Source: a virus (lineage: Duplodnaviria > Heunggongvirae > Uroviricota > Caudoviricetes). From it: DNA of 39,466 nucleotides. Both the position numbers and the translations under genes were made by a program. Of this stretch, positions 6,421-24,458 are shown in pieces. The stretch lies in IMG/VR virus record IMGVR_UViG_2531839252_000006; one strand, given 5' to 3'. The notes under the pieces are model-generated. The model was not told the origin of the DNA, made no database searches, and saw only the letters and a list, made by a program, of their open reading frames with translations. Position 1 is the first letter of the stretch; each line of letters starts with the position of its first letter.

Positions 6421-8247
6421 TTACTGCTGTGTTGCCTCAGTAGCAAACAGCGGTCTGATGGCATTCGCAGCGTTATTTATCGCTCTTTCATAGGCTGGTG
6501 TTCCTGCTTTGGTGTTTGCCAAACGAAGAAGCATATTTCTTGCTGCTTTGGACTCATACAAGCGCATCATTGCACCAAAACCAGCCTCAAGCCCCATTGA
6601 TACGCCAAGGGTCGCAGTTGCGCCAATCGTCCTTATCCTGTTGGCTTGCGATTGCCCCGTCTGAGTTACTACATTTGCGGTGTCTGACCTTGCTGTTTGC
6701 TGTAGAACTTCATGAAGAGCATCAAGCTCTTTCATGTGCTTTCCAGAAAAAATAGTGTTGTAAATTTCACCGCCTGACTGAGATTTCAGCTTATTAACTT
6801 CAGTGATGAACTTGGCTGGAGAGTCCCCGGCCTTTTCCGCTATTTTGCTGACGTAAGCTGCACGCATAGCATCTTTCCCCTTATCATCCAGTGCGCTCCA
6901 GATTCGTTTCACGTCAGATGGTTTTCTGCTTAATACAACGGTATTTATAAGTTCAGGACTGGCTTCGCTGCTTGCCTTGTTGAGCTTGTTGGCAATGTTT
7001 TTATTAAGCACCTTATTATAAACGTTTGCATAATCGGAATTTGCTTTAAGGTATTTTGCTGCGTCTGATGCACCGAGGTTTTTAGCAACTGCGTTACGAA
7101 GGTCTTTTGACATTGCATTCTCTACCATATTGGTAGCTGCTTTTGCCTGGTTGGGGAAGACCATAGCATCTCCCTGAACATTAGATCTAAATGCTGTTCT
7201 GTGCTGACGCAAGAGATCAAACGTAACATCCAAATCAGTTGCAGGGTTTGCTAATTCTTCACGTAGGTTACGCAAGGATGTAAGCAGGCTTTGATTGGCA
7301 GACGTCCCAAGCCGTTCCTGTCTTGCGATCGCTGTATTCAGAGCATTCATGGTATTTGTGGTATCAACTGCGGCATTACCCATTTTATTGGTGACGTCAT
7401 TGATAACAGCGCCAGCGGCATCCTTCCGCCCCCTTAACGTGGTGGTAAGAGATTTCACCACATCATCAGGGTTGTACTCACCAAAACGGTCAAAATAATT
7501 GCTTACCAGCTTACTACGCGTTGCATATTGCTCCGCTCGCTTTGAGCCTGTCCCGAGCAAAGCCCCCTCAGCATCCTGAGTAAGTCCGCGAGTGAAAGCA
7601 TTTTTCGGCGGGATAACATCAGATGTCATTGGTGTCACGCCCATCGATTCTGATGTGGCAATTTTCTTCGCCACTTCTGGCGCAATATCACCTTTTATAG
7701 CCGTTATTCCACGCCCTATTCCCTTTGCTGCTGCGGAAAGAACACCCTGAGCGGCAAGGTTAACTCCGGCATTTTTAGCTGCATTTTGTGCGAAATCACC
7801 TTTCTGATTTGCGGCCTCTGCCAGTGATCCAATAGCCATACTTCCTGCCGTTCCAACTCCTGGAACTAAATACCCGCCAATTGTTTCTCCAGCTTGAGCG
7901 TAGGAGTCTGTCGGTCTGTCTACTGGACGATAGACATCATCCAATACTTTTGGCCCACCAAGCCCCTGACTGATTGCATTAATCAGACTTGCGCCACCCT
8001 GCAATACGTCAAATGGTATGTTTACCAGACCACGACCAGCCTGTTCTGCAATTTGCCCTGCACTTTGACCACCAGTGAGCCAGTCAGTAGCTTTTCCTAC
8101 CAGAGATTGTTCTTCTGGCTGCGATTGGTTTTGGGTGGATTGATCACCAGAAGACAGCATCTGAGCAATGCGACGTGCTCCCTCAGTATCACCAGCAGCA
8201 TCAGCATTCCTTAACGCCGTCATCAATTGTTCACGACTATAAGCCAT
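6421..8247 (-). CDS. Ejection (injection) protein, P22 gp16-like, 608 aa.
   Basis: Size and position immediately downstream of the gp20-like gene match the P22 order 7-20-16; Ala/Gly-rich composition. Confidence 0.75.
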
Positions 8248-9632
8248 TACTGCCCTCCGAGATATTTGCTAATTAATTCGTCATCGGACAATTGCTGTTG
8301 AGGTTGGCTATCGCCATAACTTGAGGAAAGAAAACGTTTTGCCGCAGAGTTCAATGATTCACCCTTCTTAACATCCATCCCCATGATGTTTCGGTTGCGA
8401 TCAGATTGTCCAGGGCTGCCGTTTGCACTCATCCACTCTGACCTAAACTCGTTGAACTTCGCGTTATTACTTTCCATTTTTGCCATACCCCTTAACCATC
8501 GAGCCATTACCATTGGATTATCCGTTTCGCTTGGAATGCCTTTCCTTGCAAACTCAATATCCTTATCTGATGCAGGGCCGGGAGGTAGAAGCTTGGTTGC
8601 CTGCGCATTGGCTAGTTGGTTGAATCTAATCCGCATATCTCGGAGGTAGTTATCTTGCCCCGTAAGCTTAGAGAACATATTTTCAGCGTTACCGAACAAA
8701 CCAGGAGTTGGCTTCTCCTTCTCCAGCGTGTCAGCGAGCGTTGTCATTGAATCGGCAGCATTACGACTAGCTGCCGCATCACCTGCTGATTTTTCTATAG
8801 CCTTTTCCATGTTCACGGATAGTTTTGGCGCAGCATTAATAAGTTCATCGGCCTTCTTTTGTGCCTGTTGTACTTCAAAACCGAATTTCTGCTTATCAAG
8901 TGCCAGTCTTTCTGCTGCAAGTCCGTGTCCAGTCATTGCTGACTGATAGGAAAGGTTTTGCCCTCTCGCCTGAAGTGCCTCGCCAGCCTGATTGCTGCGG
9001 ATTGTCTCTGCCAGCCTGCCTCGGTCAATTTCACGACCAGCCATCTTGTCCTGAACAGCAAACGCCTTTTCTGGCCCAAGTGCACCGAGAGACATAGTAG
9101 TCAGCATGTGTGATAGCTGCTCTGGATTCTGGATACCTGTCTGAATCATCCAGTCAGCATTAGCACCAACGCGATTTAACCTGTCCTTGTTGTCAGTAAT
9201 GAATTTACTGTAGGCTTCCGGTCCCTGAGAAAGAGCGACGTTAGCCCTCATGGCTAAATCGCCCATATCGTTGCGTTGCTGCTCATTAAGACCAGAAAAC
9301 GCCTGTTGTGCCTGTGCAACAAACGCTGGATTTTCCTGGGCAAACTTAAATAGTCCCGATGGATCACCAGAAGCCCATGCATCAGCATGAACCTTATTGA
9401 ACGCACTAATCGCTTTCTGTTGCTGTTCCTGATTGTAAATATCAGCAACTCCAGCCAGGCCACGTAACGCGGTCAGGCCAACGTTATTTGCACCTGAGCG
9501 AGCCAGTTCATTGTTTTCGCGGATCAGACCAAGCGTTGCGTTAATGTCGCTTGCCTTTGGCGCATTCTCATTTTGCGTACCGATGCCAGCCAGAAAACCA
9601 CCAGAATTAATACCCTGTTGCCACGTAGCCAT
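8247..9632 (-). CDS. Ejection protein, P22 gp20-like, 461 aa.
   Basis: Size and synteny with P22 gene 20; start overlaps the upstream gene's stop. Confidence 0.75.
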
Positions 9633-21849: not shown

Positions 21850-22287
21850 TTATTTCAGGCACTGAGTCCTGATGTACTCCTGCAGGTAGTTAACCTGCGC
21901 GGTTATCCTGTCGATTCCACTTCGGAGACGGTAATAATTGAGTTCAGCATCTGCTGTAAGTCTTGGGCTTTCTCCATCGCCCATGCCGCTGGCTCCGGTC
22001 GTTGACTTTGCACAGGTGGCGGCGACTTGCAGGCGCTTACGCCCAGCAGAAACATCAGCACGGAGACTTTCGATAGTCGCGTTAGCATCAGCAAGCTCCT
22101 TTGTATATCTGGCATCGAGTTCTGCTACGTCACGTTGACGCTTCTGCATATCAGCGATGATGGATGTGGCTTTATCGCGCTGGTCTTTGTAGGCGATGGC
22201 GTTATCACGGTAATGATTAACAGCCCATGACAGGCAGACGATGATGCAGATAACCAGAGCGGAGATAATCGCGGTTAACCGACTCAT
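21850..22287 (-). CDS. Rz: Rz i-spanin, 145 aa.
   Basis: N-terminal transmembrane segment [19 protein letters not shown] followed by a coiled-coil periplasmic domain; contains embedded Rz1. Confidence 0.8.
21903..22088 (-). CDS. Rz1: Rz1 o-spanin lipoprotein embedded in the +1 frame of Rz.
   Basis: Lipobox LLGVSAC followed by a proline-rich short mature peptide; entirely inside Rz. Confidence 0.6.
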
Positions 22288-22375
22288 GACATCAACACCC
22301 CAACAGCCAGAAAACACGGCCACGCATCGTTGCCATTAAATGCGAGCAACGCTGCCATGAAAAAGCAAATCATGC

Positions 22376-22873
22376 TCATTGCTGCCCCCACAAACAGACT
22401 TCACGCTCAATCTCACGACGAGTCATCAGCCCTTTCCATTGCTTACCGCCAGCGTATGTCCAGCGACGTAGCTGGTCACATGCGCCTTTGATATCGCCCT
22501 GGTTTATTTTGCGAAGAAGCGTCGATGTTCTGAAATTGCCTGCGCCCACGTTGTAGACGAACGAGTAAAGAGCGCCGCGCGTTGTTTCCGGTATATCGAC
22601 TTTGATGTACGGGTTAATTTGTCTGGCGACCGTGGCAAGGTCTTTATTCAGGAGGGCTTTGCATTCTGCTTCGGTATACGTTTTACCGGGAATGATGTCT
22701 TTTCCGGTGTGTCCGTGACATACAGTCCATACACCAACGATATCTTTATATGGTATGTAGCTGACGCCTTCCAGACCATCGTTACCACTTGGGCCAGTGA
22801 TTAACACAGATGCTATAGCAATAGCCCCGCCACCAATAGCCGCAGCAACGGCTTTTCGTAATGATGGAGGCAT
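22376..22873 (-). CDS. R: SAR (signal-arrest-release) endolysin, phage 21 R-like lysozyme, 165 aa.
   Basis: Weakly hydrophobic Gly/Ala-rich N-terminal SAR segment ([20 protein letters not shown]) followed by a lysozyme domain; start overlaps the holin stop (TAATG). Confidence 0.85.
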
Positions 22874-23088
22874 TATTCACCTCTCGCAGCCTTTCTTCTG
22901 TCTTCTCTGATTTTGAAGTACAGATTTGTCAGATAGGTGAGAAAGCCCAACACAAGGCTTCCAAGCACTCCAATCGCAGCCCACTGTGATGGACTGACCT
23001 GATCCAACCACTGCAAAAACCAGTATCCCGCACTACCAGCGGATGTTCCGTAAGCAATGCCAGTTGAGATTTTGTCCATTGATTTCAT
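22873..23088 (-). CDS. S: Pinholin, phage 21 S21-like, 71 aa with dual start.
   Basis: [30 protein letters not shown] ... matches remembered S21; the MKSM dual-start motif gives antiholin and holin forms. Confidence 0.85.
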
Positions 23089-23377
23089 AGCAACGCCTCC
23101 GCCAGTAACGGATTGCGTAGTTCTTATATTGGGAAGGGGAAAAGAAGGCCGCAGCGTAACTATCGCTGATGAGTTCAGGATAGTCAGTGGCTACGGCTCA
23201 GTTTGGGTTGTGCTGTTGCTGGGCGGCGATGACGCCTGTACGCATTTGTTGATCCGGTTCTGCTTCCGGTATTCGCTTAATTCAGCACAACGGAAAGAGC
23301 ATTTATGGCTCGCATCGCGGGAAAAAGCCCACGGTAGAGAGTCGAACTCTACAAATGCTCTTACCTGTTGCACAGAT

Positions 23378-23440
23378 ATAAAAAATCCCGAAACCGTTAT
23401 GCAGGCTCTAACTATTACCTGCGAACTGTTTCGGGATTGC
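23378..23440 (-). terminator. tR' terminator (end of the 6S late leader).
   Basis: Minus-strand aatcccgaaac ... gtttcgggatttttttat matches the remembered lambda tR'. Confidence 0.7.
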
Positions 23441-23572
23441 ATTTTGCAGACCTCTCAGCCTGCGATGGTTGGAGTTCCAGACGATACGTCGAAGTGACCA
23501 ACTAGGCGGAATCGGTAGTAAGCGCCGCCTCTTTTCATCTCACTACCACAACGAGCGAATTAACCCATCGTT
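23380..23572 (-). ncRNA. Lambda-type 6S late leader transcript (PR' to tR'), including the qut site.
   Basis: The minus-strand sequence from the promoter to the terminator reads like the remembered lambda PR'-qut-tR' segment; predicted length about 190 nt. Confidence 0.5.
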
Positions 23573-23574
23573 GG

Positions 23575-23610
23575 GTCAAATTTACCCAACTTTATTCAAA
23601 TAGTCAATAT
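23575..23610 (-). promoter_or_regulatory. Late promoter PR' (-35 TTGACT at 23602-23607, -10 TAAATT at 23579-23584) with the overlapping Q-utilisation site.
   Basis: Hexamers seen on the minus strand with 17-bp spacing, immediately downstream of Q; same as remembered lambda PR'. Confidence 0.7.
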
Positions 23611-23649
23611 TATGCCGTTAATATGTTGCCATCCGTGGCAATCATGCTG

Positions 23650-24273
23650 TTAACGTGTGACCGCATTCAAAATGTTGTCTGCGATTGACTCTTCCTTGTG
23701 GCATTGCACGACCAGAGCGTCATACAGCGGCTTAACAGTGCGTGACCAGGTGGGTTGAGTAAGGTTTGGGATTAGCATCGTTACAGCGCGATATGCGGCG
23801 CTTGCTGGCATCCTGGAATAGCCGACTCCTTTGCATCTTCCGCACTCTTTCTCAACAACTCTCCCCCATTGCTCTGTTTTGGCTATATCAACCGCACGGC
23901 CTGTACCGTGGCAATCTCTGCATCTTGCGCCCGGCGTCGCGGCACTACGGCAATAATCCGCATAAGCGAATGTTGCGAGCACTTGCAGTACCTTTGCCTT
24001 AGTATTTCCTTCAAGCTTTGCAACGCCACGGTATTTCCCCGATACCTTGTGTGCAAATTGCATCAGATAGTTGATAGCCTTTTGTTTGTCGCTCTGGCTG
24101 AGTTCGTGCTTACCACAGAATGCAGCCATTCCGAATCCGGCTTGTGATTGCGCCATCCCCATAGCAGCCATCACATCAGTACCGGAAAGAGAGTCAGAAG
24201 CCGTAGCCCGTGGTGAGTCGCTCATCATCGGGCTTTTTGGCGAATGAAATTTAGCTACACTTTCGAGTCTCAT
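23650..24273 (-). CDS. Q: Late-gene antiterminator Q (lambda type), 207 aa.
   Basis: Translation MRLESVAKFHSPKSPMMSDSPRATASDS ... with zinc-binding cysteines (CRDCHGTG ... CGRCKG) matches remembered lambda Q, same length. Confidence 0.9.
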   Translation of the reverse strand: MRLESVAKFHSPKSPMMSDSPRATASDSLSGTDVMAAMGMAQSQAGFGMAAFCGKHELSQSDKQKAINYLMQFAHKVSGKYRGVAKLEGNTKAKVLQVLATFAYADYCRSAATPGARCRDCHGTGRAVDIAKTEQWGRVVEKECGRCKGVGYSRMPASAAYRAVTMLIPNLTQPTWSRTVKPLYDALVVQCHKEESIADNILNAVTR

Positions 24274-24458
24274 CGTCTTCCCTTTTTGCCTGGCGTGACC
24301 ATCAGGACGCCGTTAACTATTACGTGACGCTCGCCTTTGCTGTCTCGGTTGTACTTGAGCACTGTTCCTCTTGCGCAGGAAAGCATCCTTGCCACTTCGG
24401 TCTGATTGCCTCGTGTCTGGATAAGAAGCTCTGGTATCGTTTGAATTGTGGCGTTCAT
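24270..24458 (-). CDS. ninH: NinH-like protein.
   Basis: Motif GNQTEVARMLSCARGTVLKY resembles lambda NinH; overlaps neighbouring genes by 4 nt. Confidence 0.65.
   Translation of the reverse strand: MNATIQTIPELLIQTRGNQTEVARMLSCARGTVLKYNRDSKGERHVIVNGVLMVTPGKKGRR

Follow-up and report, generated by a model that had tools for sequence, protein, structure and literature searches.

A probable late-operon leader of lambda-type and phage 21-type modules, with a stem-framed RNA cassette, in a P22-like coliphage

Genes and signals from Q to the endolysin

The region described here lies on the minus strand of the window (the whole stretch of 39,466 nucleotides that was analysed) and contains a lambda-type Q gene, phage 21-type lysis genes and the leader between them. 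The predicted layout runs from Q through PR', the pause element, the 6S-type unit and tR' to an 87-nt cassette, module D, box E and a 21-type leader, and then to a pinholin and a SAR endolysin (Table 1). The genome backbone is P22-like, unlike that of lambda; judged from sequence comparison, the region is very probably the late-operon leader of a P22-like coliphage built from interchangeable lambdoid modules.

Table 1. Positions of the genes, signals and RNA elements discussed in the text
Feature	Position	Strand	Basis or remark
Q antiterminator gene, lambda type, 207 aa	23650..24273	-	Identity to lambda Q; Pfam PF03589 (191 bits)
PR' late promoter	23579..23607	-	Promoter scan: -35 TTGACT (23607..23602), 17-nt spacer, -10 TAAATT (23584..23579)
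Predicted start (+1 = 23572) and sigma70-dependent pause element, AACGAT then GGG	23564..23572	-	Identical to lambda
6S-type terminated transcript unit, 194 nt, predicted	23379..23572	-	193/194 identical to lambda 44587-44780
tR' intrinsic terminator	23380..23438	-	Long hairpin (23438..23384) and six T (23385..23380)
Stem-framed RNA cassette, 87 nt	23286..23372	-	Fold -38.9 kcal/mol
Cassette cargo (non-lambda patch)	23305..23352	-	Unalignable with lambda
Module D, lambda-type leader segment	23207..23291	-	Closed by inverted repeat GUUGUGCUG...CAGCACAAC; about 98% identical to lambda
Box E, 59 bp, common to lambda-type and 21-type leaders	23145..23203	-	Overlap of lambda and phage 21 BLAST matches
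Phage 21-type proximal leader, RBS GGAGG (23100..23096)	23089..23144	-	Aligns with phage 21, not lambda
S21-type pinholin/antiholin, dual start Met1 23088, Met4 23079	22873..23088	-	Pfam PF04971, 122 bits
SAR-type endolysin, R21-like	22376..22873	-	Pfam PF00959, 156 bits
Antisense ORF, 146 aa	23057..23497	+	Judged not a gene

Q agrees with lambda Q at 205 of its 207 residues (99%), the two differences being N61S and L135Q, and in the BLAST comparison the lambda-like DNA begins at the Q ATG. The L135Q substitution adjoins the tip of the DNA-contacting arm.

The promoter scan places PR' at the lambda position as a sigma70-type TTGACT-17-TAAATT promoter. Between the Q stop codon and +1, 72 of 77 bases are those of lambda, with mismatches at -39, -29, -28, -18 and -2; the spacer, which holds the predicted Q-binding element, therefore differs only at -29, -28 and -18 (14/17 identical, and an 18/21 match to the lambda qut 21-mer given in the mEp234 annotation). 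The -35, the 17-nt spacer length, the -10 and AACGATGGG at +1 to +9 are all intact as in lambda, where AACGAT occupies +1 to +6, a GGG discriminator-like sequence follows and the pause falls at +16 (PMC4005639). The roles of the QBE, the SDPE and the terminator in such Q cassettes have been described (PMC9388147). Binding of Q to the PR' spacer of the present phage, with three substitutions in the spacer and two in Q itself, is assumed here.

The predicted 6S-type unit differs from lambda at a single position (+116, A to T). In lambda lysogens the abundant short PR' transcript named 6S RNA is the terminated product of PR' and has no known function, and other short RNAs of lambdoid prophages likewise arise when a constitutive PR' transcript stops at tR' in the lysogen; one of these, StxS, derives from a 258-nt unit of an Stx phage, processed by RNase E to 74 nt (PMC7547250), whereas the unit in the window is of the lambda 6S type. 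The tR' sequence is that of lambda and folds at -26.9 kcal/mol. It was not called by a simple terminator scan, the loop exceeding the limit of the scan, and its assignment therefore rests on lambda identity and folding. Overall, the segment with PR', the Q-binding spacer, the pause element, the 6S unit and tR' is a 98% identical copy of that of lambda.

From lambda biology we infer how start, pause, termination and read-through would proceed in this phage. PR' would fire constitutively and RNA polymerase would pause at +16 on AACGAT; without Q, transcription would stop at tR' and leave an RNA of about 194 nt, while Q bound between the -35 and the -10 would be loaded onto the paused polymerase, which would then read through tR' and the structured leader and reach the lysis and morphogenesis genes. 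The order and spacing of the lambda late cassette (Q, PR', the qut site composed of QBE and pause element, 6S RNA and tR') are all retained; the departures from lambda are the substitutions in Q and the spacer, the replaced interior of the hairpin downstream, and the last 56 nt before the holin together with holin and endolysin, which are 21-type instead.

The lysis genes have another affinity. The stretch 23203..22373, comprising box E, the proximal leader, S21 and R21, has 95.6% nucleotide identity to phage 21, whose record (OL657228) has the RBS annotated at the same place and lists S21-71 and S21-68, matching the Met1 and Met4 starts found here. Phage 21 and the window have in common box E, the proximal leader of 56 nt and its RBS, the pinholin with dual start, and the SAR endolysin; upstream of box E phage 21 differs, with a Q21 and QBE of its own, a short terminator and two tRNA genes. 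The 21-type homology ends at 22373, at the endolysin, and Rz/Rz1 are not 21-type (76.6% identity to phage 21, 77% to lambda and 92.6% to Dewey). Only the holin and endolysin are 21-type, with Rz/Rz1 coming from a third source.

The joint between the two blocks

BLAST resolves the minus strand into a lambda-like block, 24280..23145, and a phage 21-like block, 23203..22373, in agreement with the proposal of the initial annotation that a lambda-like Q/PR' region has been joined to 21-type lysis genes. When the reverse complement of 23089-23650 was compared by megablast with a database of 50,697 phage records, query positions 2-506 matched lambda (J02459, 44510-45003; 91.3% over the whole span, E = 0) and positions 445-562 matched phage 21 (OL657228, 39744-39865; 93.4%), so that the suspected extended identity to lambda is indeed found. 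Base-by-base comparison gives 297 nt of continuous lambda identity, in agreement with the 300 bp or so that the initial annotation gave for the lambda-like promoter, qut and terminator. A 52-nt non-homologous patch (23353..23302) then interrupts the identity, after which it resumes at about 98% over about 157 nt. Lambda similarity finally stops at 23145, which is 56 nt upstream of the S21 ATG (23088); the claim that lambda likeness is lost shortly before the holin is therefore correct for the end of the block, but the internal patch had been missed.

These alignments support the joining of a Q/PR'/tR' module of lambda type to a lysis module of 21 type. What had been overlooked is that phage 21, too, has the last 59 bases of the lambda-like block: since the lambda and phage 21 matches overlap at 23203..23145, the joint is this shared 59-bp box, and on sequence comparison the exchange point lies somewhere within box E with no clean break.

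Box E is found upstream of holins in lambda, 21, Dewey and many prophages. Its 79 instances comprise 27 variants, each of which continues as either the lambda type or the 21 type. Its hairpin (23197..23148), which is a prediction, is followed by CUUCUUUU and folds with this tail at -28.2 kcal/mol. Besides a possible role as a recombination linker, box E could act in the late leader as an attenuator or as an additional intrinsic terminator, as would be suggested by its GC-closed hairpin and the sequence after it, CUUCUUUU in the window and CUUCUUUUUUU in phage 21 (runs of four and seven U, respectively); terminators in tandem have been described for the late leader of lambda. This role is less likely than not: where the sequence continues as the lambda type, the hairpin is followed by no more than UUUU or CUAC, the otherwise detailed annotation of phage 21 has no terminator at box E, the terminator scan did not call one, and the 27 variants, which differ little, show almost no covariation.

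Module D, immediately before box E, has its 9-bp closing stem in the minimum-energy fold. In phage 21 and K71-77 its place is taken by tRNA-Asn and tRNA-Thr. The idea that module D is a decayed tRNA-Thr was examined by global alignment and gave a weak score (z = 2.55), with 24 of 2000 shuffles as good.

The stem-framed cassette and its interior

The 52-nt break in lambda identity lies inside a hairpin of 87 nt (23372..23286) and forms its interior. The stem of this hairpin has about 19 bp, 23372..23353 pairing with 23304..23286 around a bulged A at 23366 and a U.U mismatch (23363/23294). The corresponding lambda cassette lies at 44787-44862; that lambda element carries no annotated function. 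Between the window, lambda and MLI108K3 the interior, or cargo, has been swapped while the flanks are otherwise nearly identical.

In sampled phage contigs at least 141 distinct cassette elements were found. Their interiors are of at least 85 unrelated kinds, among them T-loop RNAs, a tRNA-like sequence and a hammerhead core, and the cargo classes number at least 56 of 29-57 nt and at least 32 of 56-86 nt. Nine matches, all in environmental contigs, are candidate "empty" frames whose stem halves stand no more than 24 nt apart. Among the matches listed, the 97 distinct frames are paired at 98.3% of stem positions, with compensatory change in 11 of 18 pairs; none of 500 shuffles paired as highly and slid controls reached 38-60%, figures to be read with the knowledge that part of the stem was fixed by the search patterns and that related sequences inflate the shuffle statistics. 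The bulged A, the U.U mismatch and a U.G pair are conserved, and the cassette occurs with three unrelated Q families. Also among the matches listed, the cassette is on the strand of Q in 71 of 71 cases and on that of the lysis genes in 69 of 69. Through this covariation the comparisons show the cassette stem to be a conserved RNA helix of the sense strand, within which many unrelated structured interiors are found.

The cargo of the window is predicted to form two hairpins, the first T-loop-like (GUAGAG-UUCGACU-CUCUAC, 23352..23334) and the second at 23333..23316, followed by single-stranded AUGCGAGCCAU (23315..23305). Copies with 100% identity exist in E. coli prophages and in the tRNA arrays of plasmids of about 95 kb, where the cassettes lie on the tRNA strand. 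Nine diverged homologues of the cargo keep 98.1% of positions paired, with compensatory change in 12 of 30 pairs and none of 500 shuffles as good.

Could the 52-nt patch be a tRNA gene, or the decayed remnant of one, comparable to tRNA-Asn and tRNA-Thr in the phage 21 leader? The T-arm-like hairpin with its UUCGACU loop, and the position of the identical copies directly after tRNA-Thr inside the plasmid arrays, would fit such an origin. Further, other cargos carry GGUUCGAnUCC T-arms beside the 3' strand of the frame, and one 70-nt cargo is called tRNA-Ala(ggc) by ARAGORN with the frame serving as the acceptor stem. However, ARAGORN called neither a tRNA nor a tmRNA anywhere in the window, and in 22800-23800 nothing matched the tRNA model of Rfam at E = 10; the T-like arm lies on the 5' side, the wrong order for a tRNA, and the cargo has no anticodon arm. 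Furthermore, both inner helices are kept by compensatory changes, which would not be expected of a decaying pseudogene, and most cargo classes have no tRNA-like feature. A tRNA origin of this cargo is thus doubtful.

It could also be argued that the inverted repeat works at the DNA level only, as a MITE-like element, a cruciform or a recombination linker, with RNA structure irrelevant. Both the sequence and the pairing of the frame are conserved, the borders of cargo replacement coincide with it, and a few frames are perfect palindromes. Against this, the wobbles are one-sided (237 G.U against 33 A.C, with most A.C outside the stem), the cassette is oriented with the late transcript in every case listed, the bulge, mismatch and U.G pair are maintained, and the cargos have covarying helices of their own; a purely DNA-level role is improbable. 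Inversion of the DNA, which three reverse-complement pairs of cargos had seemed to indicate, was rejected, these being the same loci read on both strands of perfectly palindromic frames.

To return to the RNA helix, its stem may act as an RNase III-type processing stalk that frees the interior as a small RNA and parts the 5' leader from the lysis mRNA; we regard this as quite possible, though short of an even chance. Its length of about 19 bp together with a possibly coaxial inner helix was counted in favour. Daniels et al. (1988) are said to have described RNase III sites in lambda late RNA. The stems of rRNA operons and the sites of T7 early mRNA likewise combine a long flanking helix with conserved bulges or mismatches in a polycistronic transcript, an analogy of function only; a point of difference is that the cassette stem has about the minimum length for RNase III.

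The niche downstream of PR' is shared with AgvB and AsxR, anti-sRNAs of a moron site 3' of PR' (PMC4104026; Rfam RF02702 and RF02703), which are likewise modular with a conserved and a variable part. The seed of AgvB, CACAACA, also opens the common form of the cassette stem, where the window reads UGCAAC. The architecture differs, however: AgvB and AsxR are Hfq-binding RNAs of 51-60 nt with a variable 5' end and a conserved 3' end and terminator, whereas in the cassette the ends are conserved and the middle varies. Identification of the cassette with AgvB/AsxR was rejected on this ground and because neither model matched at E = 10 in the window region. At that threshold Rfam gave two chance-level matches in 22800-23800 and none for the cassette, and nothing was found at the cassettes of lambda, MLI108K3, L006-L008 and L123 (AgvB/AsxR models to E = 1). 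A search of the literature for the frame sequence as printed text returned three irrelevant matches.

We tentatively propose that the 87-nt hairpin belongs to a large and apparently undescribed class, "framed RNA cassettes", of late leaders and tRNA arrays in phages of Enterobacterales. The stem of about 19 bp would be the universal holder, perhaps as an RNase III stalk, within which the interior is exchanged for one of the at least 85 unrelated structured RNAs (T-loop three-way junctions, tRNA mimics, a hammerhead core), so that lytic transcription would deliver a phage-specific small RNA, perhaps as a decoy or regulator directed against host factors or defences. Such a cassette may explain at the sequence level why the interval from Q to the holin is a hotspot for insertion of non-coding RNA; it predicts that small RNAs appear only once Q has acted, and is directly testable in lambda, the best-studied phage.

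The antisense frame and the recurrence of the joint

The ORF on the plus strand, set aside as most likely spurious by the initial annotation, looks spurious on the present evidence also. It has 146 codons and an ATG start, in lambda and Dewey the same antisense frame likewise runs without a stop over modules D and E (156 and 129 codons, respectively), and residues 1-24 match phrog_19985. The D/E sequences are, however, about 95% identical, such that the open frames amount to a single observation with a chance of about 8% for 52 codons. No Pfam family matches, the frame is interrupted in the closest relative, MLI108K3, to stretches of 69 codons or fewer, and the promoter scan found no sigma70 promoter-like site on the plus strand in 22800..23900. 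Since the ORF also spans four modules of different origin, including the freely swapped cargo, and runs across RNA helices that evolve by compensatory changes, a real antisense gene is very unlikely.

The order module D, box E, 21-type leader recurs in eight of 5,426 complete E. coli genomes at 91-97% identity, and also in viral contigs L014, L026 and L106. Because it is found in these genomes and contigs, the lambda/21 joint is, as far as alignment can tell, old and recurrent and not particular to the present genome. Although it sits in a repeat-like box common to many prophages, where assemblers can switch templates, an artefactual joint from chimeric assembly is extremely improbable given the same joint in eight complete chromosomes and several independent viral contigs.

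The combination of late switch and 21-type lysis genes is ordinary phage mosaicism, and adds one more lambdoid case: a P22-like coliphage with the lambda Q/PR'/tR' switch and phage 21 pinholin lysis, in which the exchange can be placed within a 59-bp linker. In phage 434B the block of Q, late promoter and lysis genes has been naturally replaced by recombination with DLP12 (PMC9119081). In the leaders compared here the mosaic joints fall on the T-run of the terminator, on the cassette stem and on box E, all of them short and conserved, and we infer that these sequences may act as recombination linkers. In K71-77 the switch from lambda type to 21 type lies exactly in the tR' T-run.

Late promoter, 6S unit and overlapping reading frames

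When the interval between Q and the holin (23089-23650) was used as a megablast query, lambda and its laboratory derivatives aligned to query positions 2-506 at 91.3%, and phage 21 to 445-562 at 93.4%. The initial annotation had described the promoter, qut and terminator as lambda-like and had proposed a transcript of about 190 nt. The pairwise alignment to lambda (J02459) gives extended identity, far beyond chance: 72 of 77 positions match between the Q stop and +1, as do 193 of 194 across the PR'-to-tR' transcript unit (6S unit), and the Q protein is identical to lambda Q at 205 of 207 residues. The PR' hexamers TTGACT and TAAATT are in place with 17-nt spacing, AACGATGGG is present at +1..+9, and the tR' hairpin has a predicted fold of -26.9 kcal/mol with six U at its end. 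Since the identities, hexamers, pause element, terminator and Q all match, that description is confirmed, and the predicted terminated RNA of 194 nt agrees with the proposed length.

Features of the region and of the elements within the leader
Feature	Coordinates	Strand	Remark
Q	24273..23650	minus	
Leader, 561 nt	23649..23089	minus	between Q and holin
Class II holin, 71 aa	23088..22873	minus	PF04971
Phage lysozyme	22873..22376	minus	PF00959
Rz/Rz1-like ORFs	21850..22323	minus	after lysozyme
Q codon 135	23869..23871		
PR' spacer	23600..23589		
6S unit	23572..23379	minus	lambda 44587-44780
Cassette hairpin, 87 nt	23372..23286	minus	outer stem is the frame
52-nt patch	23353..23302	minus	unalignable with lambda
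Module D	23291..23207	minus	lambda-type
Box E, 59 bp	23203..23145	minus	
Antisense ORF	23057-23497	plus	

In lambda, AACGAT at +1..+6 is a -10-like element that holds sigma70 and brings about the +16 pause needed for Q loading (PMC4005639), and the general order of a Q cassette is gene Q, PR', Q-binding element, sigma-dependent pause element and terminator (PMC9388147). By identity to lambda, PR' would initiate constitutively at 23572, polymerase would pause at +16, termination at tR' would give a 6S-type RNA, and Q-dependent read-through would let polymerase reach the lysis genes. Lysogens make lambda 6S RNA in abundance, and it is not known to have a function; the Stx-phage counterpart is processed to the regulator StxS (PMC7547250).

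The 6S unit departs from lambda only by an A-to-T change at +116 (window 23457), which turns AGA into TGA at codon 28 of the lambda sense-strand orf-64 and shortens it to 27 codons. The change speaks against orf-64 being a gene, and the truncation fits a reading of this stretch as a non-coding RNA. The antisense ORF, already suspected to be spurious, most likely is so: it has no Pfam match, its PHROG match is confined to the first 24 residues, and in MLI108K3, the nearest relative that shares the joint, antisense open stretches reach at most 69 codons. Long open antisense frames do lie over modules D and E in lambda and in phage Dewey, which count as one observation because the sequences are nearly identical. 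The lambda frame (44656-45124) is a 156-codon stop-free stretch that crosses the late leader, in the same frame as the window ORF.

In 32 of the 36 lambda-type Q/PR' pairs from the fetched loci, the spacer variant at -28/-18 goes with the identity of Q residue 135 (L or Q). Residue 135 adjoins E134 at the DNA-contacting arm tip of Q (PMC9388147); the tracking may reflect linkage, or Q and its binding element may have co-adapted.

The joint between lambda-type and 21-type modules

Taken over its full extent, the window is the genome of a P22-like podophage, and its nearest relatives are coliphages HZ41 and IME10 (~95% identity over 49-61% of the length). Similarity to lambda had been expected to run for about 300 bp and to cease near the holin; it is indeed continuous for 297 nt and ends at 23145, but it is interrupted by the 52-nt patch, past which identity resumes at ~98%. 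Similarity to phage 21 begins at 23203, a position that in phage 21 is immediately 3' of tRNA-Thr, and extends at 95.6% across S21 and R21 as far as 22373. The two homologies overlap over box E, which bears out the proposed joining of a lambda Q/PR' segment to a 21 lysis module. Rz/Rz1 is ~77% identical to lambda and to 21 and 92.6% to Dewey; this third source therefore limits the 21-type block to holin and endolysin.

Box E is carried by lambda, 21, Dewey, MLI108K3 and E. coli K71-77. Across 79 instances in the fetched loci, it is preceded by a lambda-type segment or tRNA-Thr and followed by a lambda-type or 21-type continuation, as would be expected of a short patch of homology through which modules are exchanged. 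Over the full Q-to-endolysin stretch no complete E. coli genome exceeds 96.2% identity, and the full-length combination occurs in 8 of 5,426 at 91-97%. It is also found in several viral contigs. Such repeated occurrence marks the joint as genuine, old and recurrent, and not as an assembly artefact. In K71-77 (L005:1880-1900), lambda Q/PR'/6S passes into a 21-type tRNA-Asn/tRNA-Thr leader exactly in the terminator T-run TTTTTTAT, which makes this run a second site of recurrent exchange. In phage 434B the entire Q/late-promoter/lysis block was swapped by recombination with a cryptic prophage (PMC9119081). The mosaicism is of the ordinary, well-understood lambdoid kind.

A framed cassette in the leader

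The further interest of the interval lies in the 52-nt patch, which begins and ends within an inverted repeat, CAACAGGUAAGAGCAUU...AAUGCUCUUUCCGUUG. Lambda (44787-44862), the window and MLI108K3 share this repeat around three unrelated interiors, and its innermost stem pair covaries (G-C, U-A and C-G, respectively). We found no description of such a framed RNA cassette: no Rfam family matches the window, lambda or other cassettes examined, and a text search of the literature for the frame sequence gave nothing relevant.

IMG/VR was scanned with both repeat halves and again with only the outermost bases anchored, leaving the inner stem free. Cassettes with interiors of 25-55 nt were found at more than 120 loci, as were those of 56-86 nt; interiors of 24 nt or less occurred at only 9 loci, all environmental. 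There are at least 141 distinct short-interior elements in at least 56 interior classes without detectable mutual similarity, leaving out three double counts from palindromic frames, and at least 32 further classes among longer interiors. Across 97 distinct frames, 98.3% of stem cells are paired and 11 of 18 pairs have changed on both sides; 0 of 500 shuffles scored as high, a test inflated by the kinship of the sequences, and slid controls were 38-60% paired. On the late-transcript strand G.U outnumbers A.C by 237 to 33. The cassette lies on the strand of a recognisable nearby Q or lysis gene in 71 of 71 cases upstream and 69 of 69 downstream, and its neighbours include three unrelated Q families and holins of several types. 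The search patterns between them fixed about 20 frame bases, the bulged A included, whose conservation is therefore uninformative; the slid controls, the G.U/A.C asymmetry and the strand bias are independent of fixed bases, scan extent and kinship. Of the 141 elements listed, 105 retain a U.U mismatch and 105 a U.G pair. As comparative data, these results show a selected sense-strand RNA helix holding interchangeable structured RNAs, and the framed cassette in the Q-to-holin interval appears real.

The frame also occurs in many Enterobacterales genera among GTDB representative genomes. The matches from distant taxa (loci L228, L256 and L265 and others) are lambda-type and 63 nt long; in Pseudomonas and Shewanella they sit on contigs of ~48.5 kb, some at roughly 1x coverage, and in Oceanobacillus, Bradyrhizobium and other taxa on shorter contigs. 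We read these as lambda spike-in contamination.

Cassette interiors and possible role

Copies at 100% identity to the window interior are present in 35 E. coli genomes and in 68 genomes overall, some of them in tRNA arrays of ~95-kb plasmids directly 3' of tRNA-Thr; an 82% identical version lies close downstream of Q in an Enterobacter phage. Nine diverged homologues have 98.1% of cells paired and compensatory change in 12 of 30 pairs; the loop UUCGAYU is conserved throughout (Y is C in 8, U in 1) and the GAG of an AUGCGAG segment is constant. One such plasmid array also holds an STnc100-like sRNA (L006:3134-3271; 40.8 bits, gathering score 47).

The frame may be an RNase III-type processing stalk that frees the interior RNA, and its cleavage would also trim the 5' leader off the lysis mRNA. 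The title of a 1988 paper cited in PMC7547250 reports sites at which RNase III processes the late transcript of lambda in vivo. Alternatively, the cassette could be a tRNA-derived mimic or decoy, or act as a folding insulator. The processing stalk is the reading we prefer. Some other interiors have T-arm-like hairpins adjoining the 3' strand, and ARAGORN takes one for a tRNA-Ala whose acceptor stem is the frame. At L123:7751-7981 (minus), a 176-nt interior opens with a complete type I hammerhead core in the order CUGACGAG, stem II, CGAAAC, stem III, GUC (Rfam RF00163, 24.7 bits, E = 0.003, under the gathering score of 34).

Module D is closed by a 9-bp stem, as the cassette is closed by its own, and its resemblance to tRNA-Thr is weak (z = 2.55). 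In some late leaders other than that of the window, a module of ~340 nt lies between two cassettes (L007:2140-2480, L008:2075-2400 and L123:~7990-8330 (minus)). ARAGORN calls no tmRNA in it; Rfam tmRNA_permuted matches are sub-threshold at 23-26 bits, and it carries a tmRNA-like tag frame, GCA AAC GAU GAU ... UAA, with the tag peptides ANDDLMLMAA*, ANDDQFLAVA* and ANDDVVLMAA*.
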